5,940 bases of DNA, from positions 1-5,940 of IMG/VR virus record IMGVR_UViG_3300020030_000116. One strand, given 5' to 3'. The stretch comes from a virus. This document shows positions 1-5,940 of the stretch, piece after piece. Position 1 is the first letter of the stretch. Every line of letters begins with the position of its first letter. The notes under the pieces are model-generated. The model was given only the letters and a program-made list of their open reading frames with translations. It made no database searches and was not told the DNA's origin. The translations under genes and the position numbers were made by a program.

Positions 1-121
1 CCACCGTTCAAAGCGAGATCGATCCAACGTTGAATATGCGACATGGCGGAAATGTTACGCATCGAAATCGTCTTGTTATCCGCTTCCAAGTCGACTTTAA
101 TTTCAGCATCGACATAGCCGG
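1..121. repeat. Terminal redundancy, copy A; identical to 5820-5940, marking a circular genome of 5,819 nt
   Basis: Base-by-base comparison shows 1-121 (ccaccgttcaaagcgag...gacatagccgg) equals 5820-5940 with no mismatch. The repeat lies inside one continuous ORF (VP1). Confidence 0.97.
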
Positions 122-887
122 AGGTCTTCAACCACGATTCGAGATAATACGGAGGTAAGCAACGCTGGAAAATCGAAGAACGAGAATTCAGCCAAGCCCA
201 AGAACCGAGATACTTCGACTCTACAAAACTCGTAAGAGCGACAACAGGATCGGCGGCGGTCTTCACGGCACGGAGAAGAGCCTCTATGTCGGAAACAAGA
301 AAAGATGTCTGGGTAGCGCCTTCGCCATCTTCAGCGAGATTCCAGGCGGCCGTAGGGATCGAATCAATCTGCTGATTGATATAATAATTATACACAACGT
401 CAAGATAGCCAAGCATCTTGATCATGTTGAAAGACGGTGGAGCGGAAACTTTTCCAAAAGGAATTCCAAAACCAACGGGGAACCCCATATAATCAGCCAA
501 TGAGCCGGGAGTAGTAAGAGATTCAGCCGCGGTTATGAGATGTTCAGGGGTAGAAAAATCGATGGAAGCAGGCGCCAATCCCGCGGCAAGAGCAGGATAC
601 TTAACCGAATCGGGGTCATCCGTAGTGCCGGTAAAATCCAAAAGCAGGTTCGAGTTATAAAGGCGCGTAGGAATAAAAAAATACTCGAAACAAATCTTGA
701 ATCCGTTAATAAGAGGGGCATTCATCGGAAACGCCTGAACGAATGCAGAAGGAGAAAAGCGAAGTTTATCACCAGCGACTATGGGGATAAACGAGATAGG
801 AATGAGATTACCCGGGGCAAGCGTAGTAGGGGAGACGTGCGAAAGATTCACATTTGACTTACGATTGCGCTTGCGGGTTAAAAACAT
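1..887 (-). CDS. VP1: Major capsid protein VP1 (F-like), N-terminal part. It runs off the left edge and continues at 5819 on the circle.
   Basis: My translation from the ATG at 887-885 to position 1 has no stop codon. It begins MFLTRKRNRKSNVNLSHVSPTTLAPGNLIPISFIPIVAGDKLRF...FFIPTRLYN...GSLADYMGFP. It is in frame with ORF 4997..5908 through the junction (887-89 = 798 nt = 266 codons), giving 569 aa in total. The GxLIPI...GD, FFxPxRL and LxDY(M/L)GxP pattern is typical of microvirus F/VP1 N-termini. Confidence 0.93.
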   Translation of the reverse strand, partial: MFLTRKRNRKSNVNLSHVSPTTLAPGNLIPISFIPIVAGDKLRFSPSAFVQAFPMNAPLINGFKICFEYFFIPTRLYNSNLLLDFTGTTDDPDSVKYPALAAGLAPASIDFSTPEHLITAAESLTTPGSLADYMGFPVGFGIPFGKVSAPPSFNMIKMLGYLDVVYNYYINQQIDSIPTAAWNLAEDGEGATQTSFLVSDIEALLRAVKTAADPVVALTSFVESKYLGSWAWLNSRSSIFQRCLPPYYLESWLKTSGYVDAEIKVDLEADNKTISMRNISAMSHIQRWIDLALNG

Positions 888-1849
888 TAAGGCCATAATA
901 GACAGTTATAAATTTGTTGTTGCTGTTGAAAAGTGAAATCCGGGAACGGATAGCGCTTCTTCACGAAATCACGAAGAATGCCCGGAATAAGAGAATCGTT
1001 ACGACATCGAATTTCATTAGGTGAAAAACAAGCGGTTTTCCAATACCGCGGAATCGAATAACGATAGTTATTAATAAAATGACAGAACCAAGAAGATGCA
1101 CTTTTAAGCATATTTTTGCGCATAATCTTAATATCTTCCTTCGAGAGACGGCCGAAGCCGTGCGAAACAATCAACTTACCATTTTTACGGGCATCAACGT
1201 CCGAAATATACTGATGTGCAGCGCAGTCTTTGGTTATATACTTAAGGACATAGCGAACACCGGATTCAGATTCAAGCGGATCGACTTCCGCCTTTCCCAT
1301 ACCGGTATACCAGCCTTTTGCCTCATCAACCACATCGCCTTGCCAAAGATCGCGGACCTGCCACCAATAAAGAGGGCAACCGAAAAGAATAGCGTGATAG
1401 TGCATGCGATGAGTAGAAACACGGCCACGTTTAGCGGCAGTCTTACCATCGGCAAATTCGACAACGAACAAGTAGGGAAACTTAACCTTACGATAACGGT
1501 AACGTTTAGTAATCGGATCCTTCTCACGAAAGCGAGGATGTTTGCGAAGCCGATCTAAAAACTGCCGAATAGGGATATAGGGTTTTTCCTTGGCTTGCTC
1601 ATAAACAGAAGGCTTCAGGGTGAAAGTACAAAACAAGCACTGATCTGGCCGTAAGGCCATACGCTTCATAAGATGATGTGCGCGGGAAAACCATTGCTGT
1701 TGGCGACGCTTCAGACAATCGTCGCAATGTCCACAAGGGACGCGAAGTCTATAATCGTCACGACCAGAATAGACATGAACGGGATTTCCAGTAATTCGCG
1801 CATACTTAAGATAGCGGGGATTTGTAATGGTAAGTTGATTGTTACACAT
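887..1849 (-). CDS. VP4: Replication initiation protein VP4 (rolling-circle HUH endonuclease, Microviridae type)
   Basis: 320-aa ORF with rolling-circle Rep motifs. Motif 1 is FCTFTL (aa 73-78). Motif 2 is the HUH-type HYHAILF (aa 150-156, nt 1382-1402). Motif 3 is YVLKYITK with the catalytic Tyr (aa 200-207). An N-terminal Cys cluster PCGHCDDC (aa 38-45) is common in microvirus VP4. Confidence 0.95.
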   Translation of the reverse strand: MCNNQLTITNPRYLKYARITGNPVHVYSGRDDYRLRVPCGHCDDCLKRRQQQWFSRAHHLMKRMALRPDQCLFCTFTLKPSVYEQAKEKPYIPIRQFLDRLRKHPRFREKDPITKRYRYRKVKFPYLFVVEFADGKTAAKRGRVSTHRMHYHAILFGCPLYWWQVRDLWQGDVVDEAKGWYTGMGKAEVDPLESESGVRYVLKYITKDCAAHQYISDVDARKNGKLIVSHGFGRLSKEDIKIMRKNMLKSASSWFCHFINNYRYSIPRYWKTACFSPNEIRCRNDSLIPGILRDFVKKRYPFPDFTFQQQQQIYNCLLWP

Positions 1850-1857
1850 GATTAAAA

Positions 1858-2451
1858 TTAAAGATGACTACCGCCGAGGGGAACTGTTTTTGTGCCTTTG
1901 GGACGACCTTTTCGGCCGCCGCGACGGCGAGATCGCTTCACGAACGCGATCGGTAAGAATAGTGCTAAACATTTTTCCCCAAAGATGCGACATATAGGCC
2001 TCGACGAATATTGCGGAACCGTCGCCAAAGAGAAGGGGGTCAGTGTGGTAAAAGAAGTTAACTTCGTGATGCTGGAAGGACTTAAGAATCTGCTGTAACT
2101 TGACCATCGAAAGGTTGGTAGGAGAAAATCGCCACTGCATACAACCATGGTCGGAAATATAGTCGTCACAGATTCGATAGAGTTCCCGAACACAGGTATA
2201 GACGGGAAGAATTTCGGGGTCGAATGAACTTGAAAGTTCGTCGAAAACTTTTCCTGACATTGGGCGAAAGTTTGAAAATTACGTGAACGGATTTTGAATT
2301 GGTATTCCACAGTGTCATGATGAACGCCACGGCGGAGAATAGAGCCAGCCGAGACGCACGACGTGAGGAAGAAAGCGGAGAAAGCAGCCACAATGGATGC
2401 AACCAAAGTCCAAAACTTTTTGGACTTCAGCAAAGCGGGACATTTAGACAT
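1858..2451 (-). CDS. Hypothetical 197-aa protein with a lipoprotein-type signal peptide at the N-terminus and a strongly basic C-terminal tail. The middle overlaps the 130-aa ORF.
   Basis: It is the first ATG ORF downstream of the candidate promoter. The N-terminus MSKCPALLKSKKFWTLVASIVAAFSAFFLTS|C has a Lys-rich n-region, a 15-aa hydrophobic core and the lipobox L-T-S-C (Cys32, nt 2356-2358). Phage-typical codons occur in the unique 5' part (2261-2451) and in the tail (KRSRRRGGRKGRPKGTKTVPLGGSHL). The S/T/P/F-rich middle looks overprinted. The frame stays open for 197 codons. Confidence 0.5.
   Translation of the reverse strand: MSKCPALLKSKKFWTLVASIVAAFSAFFLTSCVSAGSILRRGVHHDTVEYQFKIRSRNFQTFAQCQEKFSTNFQVHSTPKFFPSIPVFGNSIESVTTIFPTMVVCSGDFLLPTFRWSSYSRFLSPSSITKLTSFTTLTPFSLATVPQYSSRPICRIFGEKCLALFLPIAFVKRSRRRGGRKGRPKGTKTVPLGGSHL
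1868..2260 (-). CDS. Hypothetical 130-aa protein, nested inside ORF 1858..2451 in another frame
   Basis: The ATG-initiated ORF has a balanced, globular-looking composition (MSGKVFDELSSSFDPEILPVYTCVRELYRICDDYISDHG...). Codons in its central part match the phage preference (CGT/CGC, GGT/GGC, TCG/TCT). Its last 20 or so codons switch to rare CGG/AGG. I recognise no family. Confidence 0.6.
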   Translation of the reverse strand: MSGKVFDELSSSFDPEILPVYTCVRELYRICDDYISDHGCMQWRFSPTNLSMVKLQQILKSFQHHEVNFFYHTDPLLFGDGSAIFVEAYMSHLWGKMFSTILTDRVREAISPSRRPKRSSQRHKNSSPRR

Positions 2452-2510
2452 TGAACATAATTTGAATATGAAACTTTACAGATGTAATATAAAGTTCCGA
2501 TAATGACCAG

Positions 2511-2532
2511 TTTACAGCGTTAGAACTGTAAA
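2511..2532. repeat. AT-rich inverted repeat (hairpin) in the leader region
   Basis: tttacag (2511-2517), loop cgttagaa, then ctgtaaa (2526-2532), a 7-bp perfect stem. It lies between the candidate promoters and the first ATG at 2451. Confidence 0.5.
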
Positions 2533-2550
2533 TTTAACATAATGAATAGT

Positions 2551-2559
2551 ATTATATCA
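2551..2559 (-). promoter_or_regulatory. Candidate sigma70-type extended -10 element (TGATATAAT) on the gene strand
   Basis: The minus strand reads TGATATAAT, a perfect TGnTATAAT, about 90 nt upstream of the ATG at 2451. I found no convincing -35 element. Confidence 0.3.
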
Positions 2560-2636
2560 CCAAAATCGGAACAGTAGGAGAGGGAAACAAGAGGGGGCAA
2601 GACGTCAAAGAACGGAGGAAATAGCAGAAAACTGCA

Positions 2637-2669
2637 CAAATGTAAAAAACTTTTTTTTACAAATGCAAA
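2637..2669 (-). promoter_or_regulatory. Candidate Bacteroidota-type promoter (TTTG-N21-TACATTTG) driving the whole minus-strand gene set
   Basis: The minus strand has TTTG at 2669-2666, a 21-nt spacer, then TACATTTG at 2644-2637. This matches the Bacteroides -33 TTTG / -7 TAnnTTTG consensus. It sits in an AT-rich tract immediately upstream of the gene array. Confidence 0.4.
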
Positions 2670-2755
2670 TTTTTCGGGATATATTTTTCAGATTTCTTGC
2701 GACGCTGCACGAGCGGTCCGCCACAAGGGCGCGATGGTGATAGACACAGTAGGGT

Positions 2756-2780
2756 CGAGAGGGGACCCCGGCCAACCTCG
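2756..2780 (+). repeat. Direct repeat copy 1 (25 nt)
   Basis: cgagaggggaccccggccaacctcg. It matches copy 2 apart from one extra c in the C-run. Confidence 0.92.
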
Positions 2781-2814
2781 TACATCAGAGCATACGAGAT
2801 GCGTAGGTAGATTC

Positions 2815-2838
2815 CGAGAGGGGACCCGGCCAACCTCG
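2815..2838 (+). repeat. Direct repeat copy 2 (24 nt), 59 nt downstream of copy 1
   Basis: cgagaggggacccggccaacctcg. The 34-nt spacer 2781-2814 is unique sequence. Confidence 0.92.
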
Positions 2839-2918
2839 CAGACATGACCGGCAATCACGCGTACGCACACGAAGCGCGCGCGCACGCAGATAGCCGACAG
2901 ACCTGCAAGGCAATTTGT

Positions 2919-2934
2919 CCCGGTTCCCTCTCGG
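2919..2934 (-). repeat. Inverted partial copy of the 5' half of the direct repeat
   Basis: The reverse complement of cccggttccctctcgg is ccgagagggaaccggg, compared with ccgagaggggacccgg at 2814-2829. This allows 13 consecutive pairs (12 Watson-Crick plus one G-T/U) with either repeat copy. Confidence 0.7.
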
Positions 2935-3310
2935 GCTCTCCCTCCGAAAGGTATGCCTTCGGCATGATTTATTTGATATTTACTTTACAGCAAAAACCGA
3001 TATGGAGCCACGCCAGGGAGGGCGTTTCCACATCTGGCATATGTTGACGAGGGAGATGCCTTTTTGCAACCTATGCGCTTCGAAAGACGGTACTTTCGAG
3101 CGCGAGAACTGCGCGCCTAAACGGCCTGCGCGGTTTCGGGGCCTCGATCTCGCGTCCGCGATATCTTCGGCGCCGGAAACCATTACTCGGCCGTTCTTAA
3201 CGGCAGCGCGGATGTATATACTGGCAAAGCCAGTGAGTTTGTGGACAAAATGAACAGCAAAACGCGCGAGCTGTGCTCCGATCGGGACACAGCTGTGCAA
3301 TTTCAGAAGA

Positions 3311-3346
3311 CAAAACAAACAAAAACCCCGGTCTCAAAGGGCCGGG
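3311..3346 (-). terminator. Candidate intrinsic terminator closing the minus-strand transcription unit
   Basis: The minus strand has a stem cccgg (3346-3342) / ccggg (3331-3327) with a 10-nt loop, followed immediately by GTTTTTGTTTGTTTTG (3326-3311). It starts 8 nt after the stop of the last small ORF. The stem is only 5 GC pairs, so its strength is uncertain. Confidence 0.5.
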
Positions 3347-3353
3347 ATTCGAA

Positions 3354-3470
3354 TCAATGGCGGTTAAGCCAACGGATAATAGCGCGGATCAGAAACAGAA
3401 GCGGAACAAGAAAGAAAACCAAGATGGCTAAAACAATAATTTGGCCATAACCAATCACAAGAAATTGCAT
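3354..3470 (-). CDS. 38-aa single-pass membrane peptide (not in the supplied ORF track)
   Basis: The ATG at 3470 lies 15 nt after the VP2 stop. The product is MQFLVIGYGQIIVLAILVFFLVPLLFLIRAIIRWLNRH, ending at TGA 3356-3354. It has a hydrophobic core of about 25 aa followed by a basic C-terminus. Its codons (CGC, CGT, GGT, GGC, CTT, GTT) match the phage genes. The candidate terminator follows it directly. Confidence 0.45.
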   Translation of the reverse strand: MQFLVIGYGQIIVLAILVFFLVPLLFLIRAIIRWLNRH

Positions 3471-3485
3471 ACAACAAAAGTTTAG

Positions 3486-4610
3486 TTACTCATGCAAAGA
3501 TACGAAATTACGTAATTCATCCAAGAATCGCTGACGAACATTTTCCTTCTCGTAATGTTCGCGAGATCCAAGAGATTCGATAGCCTTATCCAAAACAGAG
3601 TAAAGAGAATTCGAGCGATCGGTACCAGTCAAAATACGCGCAAGTTGTTCAGCCAATTCCGTGTTTTTCAATCGAGCACCAAACGCATCTTGAATAATCT
3701 TTTGTGCTTCAGATTGCTGGATTTTAATCTTACCCTCACGGAGAGCATTTTCCGTATCGGTAAGAGCCTGCTTGTAATCAGTATCGGCCGAAAGATTCGA
3801 TTTCTTAGCACCTTCAGTTGCCGTCTGGGCTTCGACATTCTCGATATTGGCATCCTGCAGACGCTTCATACCATCACGGAGAGTCTCAACGGTGAGACGA
3901 TCAGCGTCAGTCTTAGCGGCCTGGGCAAGATTATTCTCTTCGCGCGACCAAAGCTCAGCGATACGGGCATCACGTTCGGCGGAATCTTGAATAGCTTTAA
4001 TCTCGGCGAACTCGGCGTTAACCTGATCAATCTTAGCCTTAAAGCGCTTCGAAAGAGCATCGGACTCAGCAGCCGAACGAACGAACTCAAAGAGACTATT
4101 CGAATTCTCGATACCTTTAGTCTCTGCGATAGTCTTCAAACGCTGAGCGTTGGTATACTCGGTCTGTGCCTGAATGTTTTCAGCCTGAACACCCTGCAAA
4201 GCGGCTTCGCGAAGAGACGAGGCGCCTGCCATGATGTTAGACATCGGGTTATTCGAGTACGGACCTTGAGAGGGAACGGAACCACCGTCGGCCTGCGAAA
4301 CATTACCTTGCGGGGTACCCATCGGCTGGAGGGCAGAGCCTTGGAAAAACGGGTTAATCCCAGCGGCCTGCATAGAAGAACGCTGTGCAATGGGAGACTC
4401 GAATTTGTTATAAGCCCAAGAAGCATAATCTTTCATGCGTTCGTACTGGGCTTGAGCATCCTCACGGCGTTGAGTAACTTGAAGATTATACATCTTCTCT
4501 TGCCACTTACGATTTTTACGGTTTAAACTGCCAGCGGAAGCGGCAGAACCGGCGGAAGCGGCGCCCCCTAAAAGGGCGCCGATTCCAAGGGCGGTTTCAG
4601 CGAACGGCAT
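3486..4610 (-). CDS. VP2: Minor capsid / DNA pilot protein VP2
   Basis: 374-aa ORF with a Gly/Ala-rich hydrophobic N-terminus (MPFAETALGIGALLGGAASAGSAASAGS). The segment WAYNKFESPIAQRSSMQAAGINPFF resembles the conserved (M/L)xxAGLNP motif of microvirus VP2/H-like proteins. A long Ala/Glu/Gln/Lys-rich, probably coiled-coil, C-terminal half follows. The ATG lies 2 nt after the upstream stop. Confidence 0.85.
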   Translation of the reverse strand: MPFAETALGIGALLGGAASAGSAASAGSLNRKNRKWQEKMYNLQVTQRREDAQAQYERMKDYASWAYNKFESPIAQRSSMQAAGINPFFQGSALQPMGTPQGNVSQADGGSVPSQGPYSNNPMSNIMAGASSLREAALQGVQAENIQAQTEYTNAQRLKTIAETKGIENSNSLFEFVRSAAESDALSKRFKAKIDQVNAEFAEIKAIQDSAERDARIAELWSREENNLAQAAKTDADRLTVETLRDGMKRLQDANIENVEAQTATEGAKKSNLSADTDYKQALTDTENALREGKIKIQQSEAQKIIQDAFGARLKNTELAEQLARILTGTDRSNSLYSVLDKAIESLGSREHYEKENVRQRFLDELRNFVSLHE

Positions 4611-4612
4611 AA

Positions 4613-4993
4613 TTATTCAGTTTTAGCCTGCTTGAGTTTCTCCTCATAACGCTTTTTCATGCGGCCGGAAATACGATCGCGAAGCGCCTCAGACTTCTCG
4701 AAGCGATCAAAGCCAGGTTCGAACGTCGGATCAATATCCTCGGAATCATCCTCATCATAAGAAGATTCTCCGAGTTCCCGAGAAGCAAGCGGCAAACCAC
4801 CTTTGCGCATCGAGCGAATCTGATCGGAAAGAGGCTTAACGCCGTAAATCAAATTCTCATCGGTGGTAGGAGTACAAAAACCGCGGCGAGCACAGCGACG
4901 ACGCCGAGACATACGCAGGGGTAATTTAGAAAAGTCGAAGTCCTCAAAAAATTGAAGGTCTTCATTATTCGAAATATTCTTTGTCTTTGCCAT
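4613..4993 (-). CDS. Hypothetical 126-aa acidic protein between VP1 and VP2; a possible internal scaffolding (VP3-like) role is inferred from position only
   Basis: The ATG lies 3 nt after the VP1 stop, and the ORF's own stop lies 2 nt before the VP2 ATG. It has an Arg cluster (RMSRRRRCARRGF) and an acidic stretch (SSYDEDDSEDIDPTFEPGFDRFE). I do not see the FxxLPxxxRxxFxNxP motif I recall for gokushovirus VP3, so the function is uncertain. Confidence 0.75.
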   Translation of the reverse strand: MAKTKNISNNEDLQFFEDFDFSKLPLRMSRRRRCARRGFCTPTTDENLIYGVKPLSDQIRSMRKGGLPLASRELGESSYDEDDSEDIDPTFEPGFDRFEKSEALRDRISGRMKKRYEEKLKQAKTE

Positions 4994-4996
4994 AAC

Positions 4997-5940
4997 TTAA
5001 AGTGTTGTTGCTACGTTAACTTTTGACTTTTCACGATAGGCCGAAGCTGAGCACGAGAACGTCAAAACGAAGTTCTGCGCCTCGTTGGAAATATCCGCAA
5101 AAACGCTGTTATAAGCGTCCGAACGAATATAAGGCGAGTAATCGGTAAACGGACGCGACCGCTGAAGAACTGCGAGAATAGTCTCGGCGACCTCGTAGGT
5201 GATCGAACCATCTTTCAGATAATTAGCGATCGTGTCGCGAAGCGAATCAACTTGAGAAGAATTAATTTCATCGCCGTAGTCGCGATCGAGAAGCCAATAA
5301 GACAGCTCGGTAGTGAGTCGGCCGTGCGAACGGCTAACAAGCTGCATGAGCTTCGACCAAGCAGGGACAAAGCCGACGCCAATGCCGTTACCGTAATTGG
5401 TGGAAGTGAAAGAAAAAACGTCGGGCGAATCCACCGAGCCCTGCGGTATAGCGTCGAGTGTTTGAAGCAGAAGCGGCTCCATAGTAATATTATCGAGCGC
5501 GGGCGCGTATGAATCGCCAAGATTCAGTTCTTCGAGGAACGGATCAAGACCACGCGAATAGATGACATCGGGAACAAGCGAGGCCATCACCATAAAATAA
5601 CCGGGCTCGTCGAAGTTGAAGACACGGCGACGGAAATGCTCGCCACCGGAGGATTGACCAGCAAAAGCGCCGAGCGGACTGGAAGAATCGCCCGCGCCTG
5701 TCGTCTGATAGATGACATTCGAACCAAGGTACTGCCGATCAGCACCGAGAAAAATAGGCGTCGAATGATTCTTGACACGCGAAACGTCGAACTCCGAATT
5801 CAAGAAGTCGGACCAACGACCACCGTTCAAAGCGAGATCGATCCAACGTTGAATATGCGACATGGCGGAAATGTTACGCATCGAAATCGTCTTGTTATCC
5901 GCTTCCAAGTCGACTTTAATTTCAGCATCGACATAGCCGG
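4997..5940 (-). CDS. VP1: Major capsid protein VP1, C-terminal part. It continues upstream through the circular junction into 1..887; 5820-5940 duplicates 1-121.
   Basis: The track ORF 4997..5908 starts at an internal TTG (Leu in the full protein), but the frame stays open to the right edge. The stop TAA is at 4999-4997. Together with the N-terminal part it gives 1,710 nt, or 569 aa. Confidence 0.93.
   Translation of the reverse strand, partial: GYVDAEIKVDLEADNKTISMRNISAMSHIQRWIDLALNGGRWSDFLNSEFDVSRVKNHSTPIFLGADRQYLGSNVIYQTTGAGDSSSPLGAFAGQSSGGEHFRRRVFNFDEPGYFMVMASLVPDVIYSRGLDPFLEELNLGDSYAPALDNITMEPLLLQTLDAIPQGSVDSPDVFSFTSTNYGNGIGVGFVPAWSKLMQLVSRSHGRLTTELSYWLLDRDYGDEINSSQVDSLRDTIANYLKDGSITYEVAETILAVLQRSRPFTDYSPYIRSDAYNSVFADISNEAQNFVLTFSCSASAYREKSKVNVATTL
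5820..5940. repeat. Terminal redundancy, copy B; identical to 1-121
   Basis: See copy A; all 121 nt are identical. Confidence 0.97.

Follow-up and report, generated by a model that had tools for sequence, protein, structure and literature searches.

A mosaic of strand-specific, exchangeable structured modules in the non-coding region of a microvirus, with a possible role in complementary-strand synthesis

The DNA stretch analysed here (hereafter the window; positions 1 to 5,940 of the IMG/VR record IMGVR_UViG_3300020030_000116) is a circular microvirus genome of 5819 nt, with positions 1-121 recurring as 5820-5940 (a 121-nt terminal overlap). Its non-coding stretch (2452-3353) has a GC-rich core, the block 2697-3300, and this block is a mosaic of at least six structured modules, which we named D, L, A, B1, B2a and hp3/H4. 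These structured non-coding elements are conserved, specific to one strand and mobile between viruses by horizontal exchange. Judging from sequence comparison, the modules may act as folded single-stranded DNA (ssDNA) signals on the presumably packaged, T-rich strand, most likely priming the synthesis of the complementary strand; we put the probability of this reading at roughly 0.45.

The initial annotation had described a GC-rich, hairpin-dense segment, and this description is correct. The block (604 nt) has a G+C content of 57.3% versus 46.6% in the remaining genome, and the lowest folding energies of the 5819-nt circle are located in it. Folding of 2690-3310 with RNA parameters gave z-scores of -6.5 for the plus strand and -7.6 for the minus strand. 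With DNA parameters, 200-nt windows within the block reach -41 to -51 kcal/mol versus about -20 kcal/mol elsewhere, and the strongest of them (2801-3000) has z = -9.3 on the minus strand versus -3.3 on the plus strand. All the local helices listed earlier (3075-3103, 2999-3034, 3190-3204, and 3269-3294) are present, as is the AT-rich island, which we place at 2965-2989. The proposed location between a terminator (3343-3324) and a promoter match (2669-2637) was also confirmed; both signals are read on the minus strand, which carries all of the long genes. Being downstream of the terminator and upstream of the only full match to a Bacteroidota promoter, the block is outside any recognisable transcription unit. 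It was found whole, at 91-96% identity, in the independent assemblies L052, L212, L217, and L242, so it is not the chimeric assembly artefact that the initial annotation had warned of.

Listed in the direction of the minus (coding) strand, the block and its edges contain the following features:

3310..3343, minus strand: terminator-like hairpin (3343-3324) with a 6-bp stem, then the T-run TTTGTTTGTT
3269..3294, minus strand: module H4, a hairpin with a conserved CCGATCGG centre and 13-nt arms, 85% complementary
3214..3241, minus strand: module hp3, composed of CAAACTCAC, a short hairpin (CTGGCTTTGCCAG), and then GTATATAC
3110..3210, minus strand: module B2a, the variable domain of the B element, folded as a long irregular hairpin
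3071..3110, minus strand: module B1, a hairpin (3075-3103) with the invariant loop TACCGT and conserved flanks
2990..3067, minus strand: module A, a closing helix GCAAAAA/TTTTTGC around two hairpins, with the invariant 19-nt core ATATGCCAGATGTGGAAAC
2944..2989, minus strand: the AT-rich island (2965-2989) and two small hairpins (2953-2965 and 2944-2951), between modules A and L
2805..2943, minus strand: module L, a 55-bp long hairpin with module C as its tip
2756..2780, minus strand: second copy of a 25-nt unit, the first copy of which (2814-2838) is inside module L
2698..2745, minus strand: module D, a pair of small conserved hairpins (2719-2731 and 2698-2709) at the edge nearest the promoter
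2637..2669, minus strand: Bacteroidota-type promoter match with a -33 TTTG (2669-2666), a 21-nt spacer, and a -7 TACATTTG (2644-2637)

The terminator hairpin closes the late operon, bounds the block upstream on the coding strand and is kept in relatives with changes inside its stem. In every B2 variant, the B element has hp3 as its conserved 5' boundary. B1, of which about 64 copies with sharp boundaries were found, has a covarying outer stem combined with a fixed loop and inner stem. The hairpins of module D are retained in relatives that have no module L. Module C (approximately 2858-2893) is an alternating purine-pyrimidine stretch, also present in MG945634 (L004) and L073. The second copy of the 25-nt unit is missing from every aligned relative (L052, L212-L242) and is therefore a recent local duplication or conversion. 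A repeat array of the mini-CRISPR kind was considered for the two 25-nt copies and rejected, as the second copy is unique to this genome and the first is an arm of the module L hairpin. Scanning of the viral collection with a 16-mer of this repeat returned mostly chance matches in large GC-rich phage contigs and added no homologue.

Compensatory changes in the aligned homologues, the check proposed in the initial annotation, were found in modules L, A, B1, and B2a. The distribution of the modules was mapped by motif and BLAST searches. For module L, the alignment A6 of 13 relatives was analysed; it has a 69-pair structure overall, with 55 pairs within module L. On this alignment 98.8% of the cells are paired versus 30-47% in slid controls, 10 pairs are altered on both sides, and the covariation score beat all 500 shuffles. 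A run of four consecutive pairs in module L changes from CTTG/CGAG to TATT/AATA, CGCG/CGTG or TCCT/AGGA. Compensatory changes affect 12 of the 47 pairs of B2a (seven sequences) and 5 of the 34 pairs of B2b, a Y-shaped variant of the same domain. The closing helix of module A occurs as GCAAAAA/TTTTTGC, GAGAGAA/TTCTCTC or GTAAAA/TTTTAC and its inner stem as GCC/GGC, GGG/CCC or GGC/GCC, while the 19-nt core is invariant over the range from 46% to 100% VP4 identity. Changes in both arms were also seen in the hp3 stem (CCGG/CCGG, CCGAA/TTCGG, CTGG/CCAG) and in module D (GCGCC/GGCGG to GCACC/GGTGG).

These structures are better formed on one of the two strands. The minus strand is the more stable in 22 of 22 sequences for module A (by 5.6 kcal/mol on average) and in 7 of 7 for B2a (5.8 kcal/mol on average). 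Alignment-wide fold energies are -100.3 (minus) vs. -76.6 (plus) kcal/mol for module L, -66.6 vs. -55.7 for B2a and -47.6 vs. -42.6 for B2b. On the minus strand, eight or more G·T pairs of module L are invariant, and in module A the changes from G-C to G·T are confined to the same strand; on the opposite strand the invariant G·T wobbles become A·C mismatches. With an AT skew of about -0.1 over modules A and B, the asymmetry of these modules cannot be put down to base composition. For all modules the better folding strand is the minus strand of the window, that is, the T-rich coding strand. The strand-biased stability together with the G·T pairs indicates that the conserved structure is that of one minus-sense strand, and neither a double-stranded palindrome nor a plus-strand transcript.

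The orientation of the modules leads to the same strand. B1 has the same orientation relative to the genes in 60 out of 64 instances, the exceptions being L001, L026, L040 and, later, L091. These four genomes have A-rich and T-poor third codon positions, with a T-A skew of -0.57 compared to +0.5 to +0.7 in all other genomes examined. Relative to the T-rich strand, the orientation of the B1 hairpin is the same in 79 of 79 microvirus genomes, including the four with genes on the A-rich strand, and module C in L004 obeys the same rule. A-richness is a property of a clade: five VP1 relatives (38-51% identity) from rodents, tortoise, lemur, dog, and human have skews of -0.19 to -0.64. VP1 relatives of this clade are found in more than 200 GenBank records, and the coding strand was A-rich in every member checked. 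In the non-coding regions of the five relatives, the stronger fold z-scores tend to fall on the T-rich strand. The A-rich set consists of L001, L026, L040, L091, L004, and L264-L268 (accessions MG945515, MG945634, PQ007276, MK765568, OP549874, PP511341, and MG945248), with skews between -0.19 and -0.64.

The encapsidated strand is T-rich in phiX174 and M13, which is attributed to cytosine deamination in ssDNA. If the packaged strand is T-rich in these viruses as well, the modules follow the packaged strand rather than that of the mRNA. This suggests that the A-rich clade may package the strand complementary to its mRNAs; our literature search found nothing on reversed strand polarity in microviruses. 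It is a doubtful but consequential extension of this idea that the modules constitute an undescribed family of host-directed ssDNA replication signals which reveals a negative-sense microvirus clade. If true, there would be a negative-sense branch within a family treated as uniformly positive-sense.

The homologue search proposed in the initial annotation, performed by BLAST against GenBank phages and extended by IMG/VR scans, located short pieces of the block in non-coding DNA of microviruses that are otherwise unrelated. B1 and B2a are 94-97% identical to those of the window in L046, L001, L040, and L091. In the 6.06-kb viruses with the B element, VP4 is about 27%, at most 28%, identical to that of the window virus, and tblastn did not detect their VP1. 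When metagenomes were scanned with the VP4 of the window, 54 human-gut loci were obtained. Comparison of these related genomes for presence or absence of the block has shown that relatives with 77-100% VP4 identity have it at the same place with some cassettes swapped, shortened or replaced. B2a is replaced by B2b in L219, L221, and L229, by a short B2c in L216 and by unrelated hairpins in L222. In L214 and L216, H4 is exchanged for unrelated sequence; L223 has no H4, and module L is absent in L210, L211, L218, and L227. Since the swaps between B2a, B2b, and B2c are delimited by the conserved B1 and GTATATAC, they are better explained by recombination than by transposition. The genome of L213 is rearranged, with module B directly adjoining capsid-gene sequence.

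In more distant relatives (61-68% VP4 identity), module A is present alone or together with the TACCGT hairpin only, and it is located upstream of VP2, in contrast to its position downstream of VP2 in the window. Module A is present in nearly all relatives picked by VP4 similarity for which enough sequence is available. Therefore, A can be considered the constant element of this lineage and the rest accessory. The initial annotation had also suggested an acquired element. This agrees with the behaviour of the modules as horizontally exchanged cassettes; it does not agree with module A, which is ancestral to the lineage, or with the lack of matches to host genomes and plasmids. The palindromic B1 core was searched as an exact 21-mer in 185,579 species genomes without a match, and a sensitive blastn search of the block against 72,556 plasmids (PLSDB) found none either. 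The same hairpin core with an extended stem (TTTGAAAGACGGTACTTTCAAA) was noticed just upstream of a terminator in L092, L106, L109, and L112, which belong to a family of large phage contigs (17-92 kb); this could be chance or a shared motif recognised by the host.

The strand-specific fold, the position outside any recognisable transcription unit, the independence of Rep relatedness, the cassette exchange and the orientation relative to the T-rich strand, taken together, fit ssDNA signals for complementary-strand synthesis. An ssDNA fold acting as a complementary-strand origin was one of the possibilities raised in the initial annotation and is the one that fits the data best, although we infer it rather than observe it. 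Under this reading, the stem-loop modules would act as folded ssDNA on the encapsidated (T-rich) strand of a temperate gut microvirus of the Bacteroidota type. They would point the host machinery (primase, a PriA-type primosome or RNA polymerase) to the start of the complementary strand after ssDNA entry. The signals would depend on the host and not on the viral Rep, and this would explain their behaviour as interchangeable cassettes. Module A would be the constant core, with B1/B2, L, D, and H4 as accessory modules gained, swapped or lost by recombination. The presence of several modules might provide redundancy or a broader host range. A comparable situation is known in plasmids, some of which carry two types of single-strand origin (sso).

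The closest functional parallels are the n' (PriA) site of phiX174 and the origin of G4. Both are intergenic hairpins of the packaged strand, folded in ssDNA and read by host proteins, flexible in position and fixed in orientation to the viral strand; in our case the viral strand is predicted from T-richness. Unlike these sites, the block is 5-10 times longer, has several exchangeable modules, belongs to a virus with a Bacteroidota-type host, and has no established sequence similarity to them. The G4-type origin has three adjacent hairpins and a start trinucleotide for the DnaG primase. In the block, hp3, B2, B1, and A are adjacent hairpins, and CTG counts were uninformative as to such a trinucleotide.

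The ssoA, ssoU, ssoT, and ssoW origins of rolling-circle plasmids are long imperfect hairpins active on one strand only. Their specificity is for the host and not for Rep, and unrelated replicons have them in common as cassettes, sometimes with more than one per replicon. Although beneficial, they can be dispensed with. At the level of predicted folding, the strand-specific and covarying hairpins of the block correspond to the long one-strand hairpin of ssoA. Cassette sharing across unrelated initiators is also observed, with 94-97% module identity at a VP4 identity of at most 28%. The terminal loop of ssoA carries the CS-6 motif TAGCG(T/A). In contrast, this motif is absent from both strands of 2691-3310, blastn against the 72,556 PLSDB plasmids gave no sso homologue (RS_B had no separate search), and the carriers of the modules are viruses.

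Among microviruses, conserved intergenic hairpins with identical loops and compensatory stems were described in the reekeekee- and roodoodoo-microviruses and proposed to be sites of negative-strand initiation (PMC9865509). This is the only precedent that our literature search found for structured non-coding elements in microviruses. Those hairpins are similarly intergenic and more conserved in nucleotide sequence than their surroundings. They differ in being single, 13-64 nt long and located in 4-kb genomes; the block is a 600-nt array of several modules, for which horizontal exchange was shown and the strand skew tested. Rfam (release 15), the search proposed initially, had no match in the window on either strand at E ≤ 5, and for six relatives at E ≤ 1 it gave only a chance microRNA match outside the element. 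ARAGORN found no tRNA or tmRNA. As there is no Rfam, plasmid or host match and CS-6 is absent, the block cannot be assigned to any described family. It resembles an sso or a primosome site in its behaviour, and its function would be similar.

Several points weigh against priming of the complementary strand. The block has no sequence link to known primosome, primase or sso signals. The equation of the T-rich strand with the packaged one is drawn from composition, and A/T flips between the clades while G/C does not. The inverted case is a single clade with at most two or three transfer events, which makes it statistically no more than suggestive. Some close relatives do without B1, L or H4, which fits redundancy and equally well non-essential passengers. 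The length of approximately 600 nt far exceeds the need of known complementary-strand origins. Finally, terminator read-through would give an RNA of the same sequence and the same fold.

We know of no described complementary-strand start outside the phiX174/G4 group, nor of anything reported in this respect for Bacteroidota-associated gut microviruses. For the latter the modules are concrete and alignable candidates. The non-coding DNA of these "maximally compact" viruses is a site of active horizontal exchange. If the modules are host-specific priming signals, their repertoire may set or broaden the host range, as sso types do for plasmids, and they may serve as host markers for uncultured microviruses. 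Module orientation combined with strand skew could also offer a sequence-only route to the packaged strand of a metagenomic ssDNA virus.

The read-through RNA mentioned above is the basis of another explanation. The modules might act as minus-strand RNA, extending the 3' end of the late mRNA past the terminator and either stabilising it or being processed to a structured non-coding RNA. The folded strand is mRNA sense in the window, G·U pairs in RNA are as acceptable as G·T pairs in DNA, the invariant nucleotides in junctions and loops are reminiscent of RNAs of the riboswitch or ribozyme kind, and in the 6.06-kb lineage the element stops about 20 nt before a gene start. We nevertheless regard an RNA function as unlikely. 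The block is located after the terminator and has no upstream match to a minus-strand promoter, and the position of the modules relative to the genes varies. In the clade with A-rich coding strands, the well-folding strand is antisense to all genes and adjoins the VP4 start codon. No Rfam family was found in the window or in the six relatives. A role of the B element as the 5' leader of the downstream gene was rejected too, as the element is inverted in the A-rich clade and relocated elsewhere. A structured RNA transcribed from a sigma70-like plus-strand promoter at 2656-2685, as the initial annotation had it, does not agree with the results: the conserved structure is that of the minus strand and has no Rfam match. 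The sigma70-like site is one arm of an AT-rich palindrome, the minus-strand reading of which is the Bacteroidota-type promoter facing away from the block, and it was discarded as a mirror image.

Part of the block, above all module A, could instead be the rolling-circle (plus-strand) origin with the site of recognition, nicking and termination by VP4. This would be compatible with a role of the modules in complementary-strand priming. Module A occurs in nearly all relatives chosen by VP4 and tracks that lineage, and its 19-nt core does not vary from 46% to 100% VP4 identity. Rep sites are likewise fixed relative to the packaged strand, and a clade with inverted polarity requires a polarity determinant in the non-coding region. 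The B element speaks otherwise: B1/B2 are shared across Rep proteins at most 28% identical, and B1 is absent from L222, whose VP4 is 78% identical, as well as from L250-L254 and the L064 class, so B is not Rep-specific. The G·T asymmetry argues against cruciform extrusion from the double-stranded replicative form, and no resemblance to the phiX174 origin was seen by eye. A nick site of a HUH-type Rep is expected in every genome with the cognate Rep; this was found for module A, which stays a candidate Rep nick site, and was not found for B1. B1 itself is unlikely to be such a site, being missing from relatives with 78% identical VP4. On balance, a Rep origin within the block seems improbable to us.

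The cassette exchange could also be expected of selfish GC-rich hairpin elements spread by recombination or gene conversion without benefit to the virus. The modules are GC-rich hairpins restricted to the non-coding DNA of a small genome, differ between near-identical genomes by presence, absence and replacement, and transfer across lineages; a 25-nt duplication is specific to the window. In these respects they are analogous to the GC clusters and repetitive hairpin elements between mitochondrial genes (PMC2800124), which are GC-rich palindromic modules in the non-coding DNA of small compact genomes and differ among close relatives. The mitochondrial elements are multi-copy and sequence-degenerate. 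In contrast, the modules are single-copy as a rule, have a constant order (hp3-B2-B1-A) at the same locus with invariant loop and junction nucleotides and a fixed strand, and no target-site duplications were seen. The invariance of loops and junctions over deep divergence indicates selection on sequence and not only on hairpin potential, and the orientation is fixed relative to the T-rich strand. We consider it unlikely that the modules are purely selfish. They are not derivatives of miniature inverted-repeat transposable elements or of IS200-IS605 either, having one copy per genome as a rule, unlike hairpins at the ends and variants replaced in place. L002 (PQ006845) has two identical copies of the TACCGT hairpin, at 2341 and 4199.

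The block is located close to the integration site of the virus:

2531..2545, outside the block: attP core AATTTAACATAATGA, containing the canonical XerD arm TTATGTTAAAT and found as a direct repeat at provirus ends

Close relatives are mostly proviruses. Many of them are in long contigs (up to 111 kb), and the 15-nt repeat TCATTATGTTAAATT, corresponding to 2531-2545 of the window, flanks them (L212, L214, L216, L217, L219, and L242 among others). Since this repeat contains the XerD arm, the virus integrates at a dif-like site and is temperate. Microviral proviruses at dif-like sites, some with extra dif-like sites, were described in Bacteroidales (PMC3091885).

Help of the block in Xer/dif integration, either as accessory sequences comparable to cer/psi or as a folded single-stranded attP as in the CTX phage, is very unlikely. 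The dif-like site is only about 150 nt from the block, and an inverted repeat joins 2526-2540 with 2976-2990, in addition to the extra sites in the Bacteroidales proviruses. The repeat, however, is short and AT-rich, relatives with the same att core have module A and the TACCGT hairpin approximately 1.7 kb away from attP, upstream of VP2, and the 6.06-kb lineage has the B element beside a different gene. The block has no 28-bp site of the Xer/dif type, the core at 2531-2545 being outside it. Identity of the B1 palindrome with dif, or its host origin, was rejected on the basis of the 185,579 species genomes with no exact match. Near attP, another inverted repeat (2500-2517 with 2526-2543) was noticed; by analogy to the CTX phage it could fold the attP region in ssDNA.

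An origin of the block as protein-coding remnant, host-derived filler or chimeric assembly is hardly credible in spite of its deviating G+C content and the 112-aa mechanical open reading frames (ORFs) on both strands, since these have no Pfam match and are disrupted by indels and cassette swaps in close relatives while the base pairs persist, the B1 core has no exact match in the species genomes, plasmids have none, and the block recurs in many independent assemblies. The block does not look protein-coding from these comparisons, and the earlier description as ORF-poor holds in this sense, not in the literal one.

The genes are arranged in the following order:

start at 2451, minus strand: small lipoprotein gene, the first in gene order
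2260-1868, minus strand: 130-aa ORF
1849-887, minus strand: VP4/Rep
spanning the window origin, minus strand: VP1, 572 aa
between VP1 and VP2, minus strand: 126-aa ORF
4610-3486, minus strand: VP2
3354-3470, minus strand: 38-aa membrane ORF, the last gene, forming the late operon with VP2

TTTG-N21-TAnnTTTG is the consensus of Bacteroides-type promoters. The match at 2669-2637 is the only full one in the genome, is conserved in eight relatives and faces attP and the lipoprotein gene, away from the block. It sits within a 23-nt palindrome (2627-2675). The host is probably of the Bacteroidota type, given the lack of Shine-Dalgarno sequences, the Bacteroidota-type promoter and the Bacteroidales precedent; a genome scan with the right flank of the provirus had no match to any host.

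A mechanical 197-aa ORF (2451-2270, minus strand) opens as a short lipoprotein with a lipobox (KKFWTLVASIVAAFSAFFLTSC). Its lipoprotein part is conserved in the distant 6.06-kb lineage (L009), and the rest looks like read-on into the next gene (130 aa). The 38-aa hydrophobic ORF (MQFLVIGYGQIIVLAILVFFLVPLLFLIRAIIRWLNRH) between VP2 and the terminator could, by its sequence, code for a small membrane or lysis protein, and this region is partly conserved in relatives.

VP2 (3486-4610) has diverged much more quickly than the genes around it: its identity in L052 is 80%, with VP1 and VP4 at 98% and 99%. Several close relatives have a different VP2 C-terminus (VP2 divergence was seen in L052, L216, L217, and L219), a sign that the pilot protein may undergo recombination or diversifying selection. 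Another GC-rich spot with strong structure is located at 4401-4600, in the 5' part of VP2, where it overlaps the Ala/Gly/Ser-rich N-terminus; with DNA parameters its z-scores are -5.6 (plus strand) and -4.4 (minus strand).

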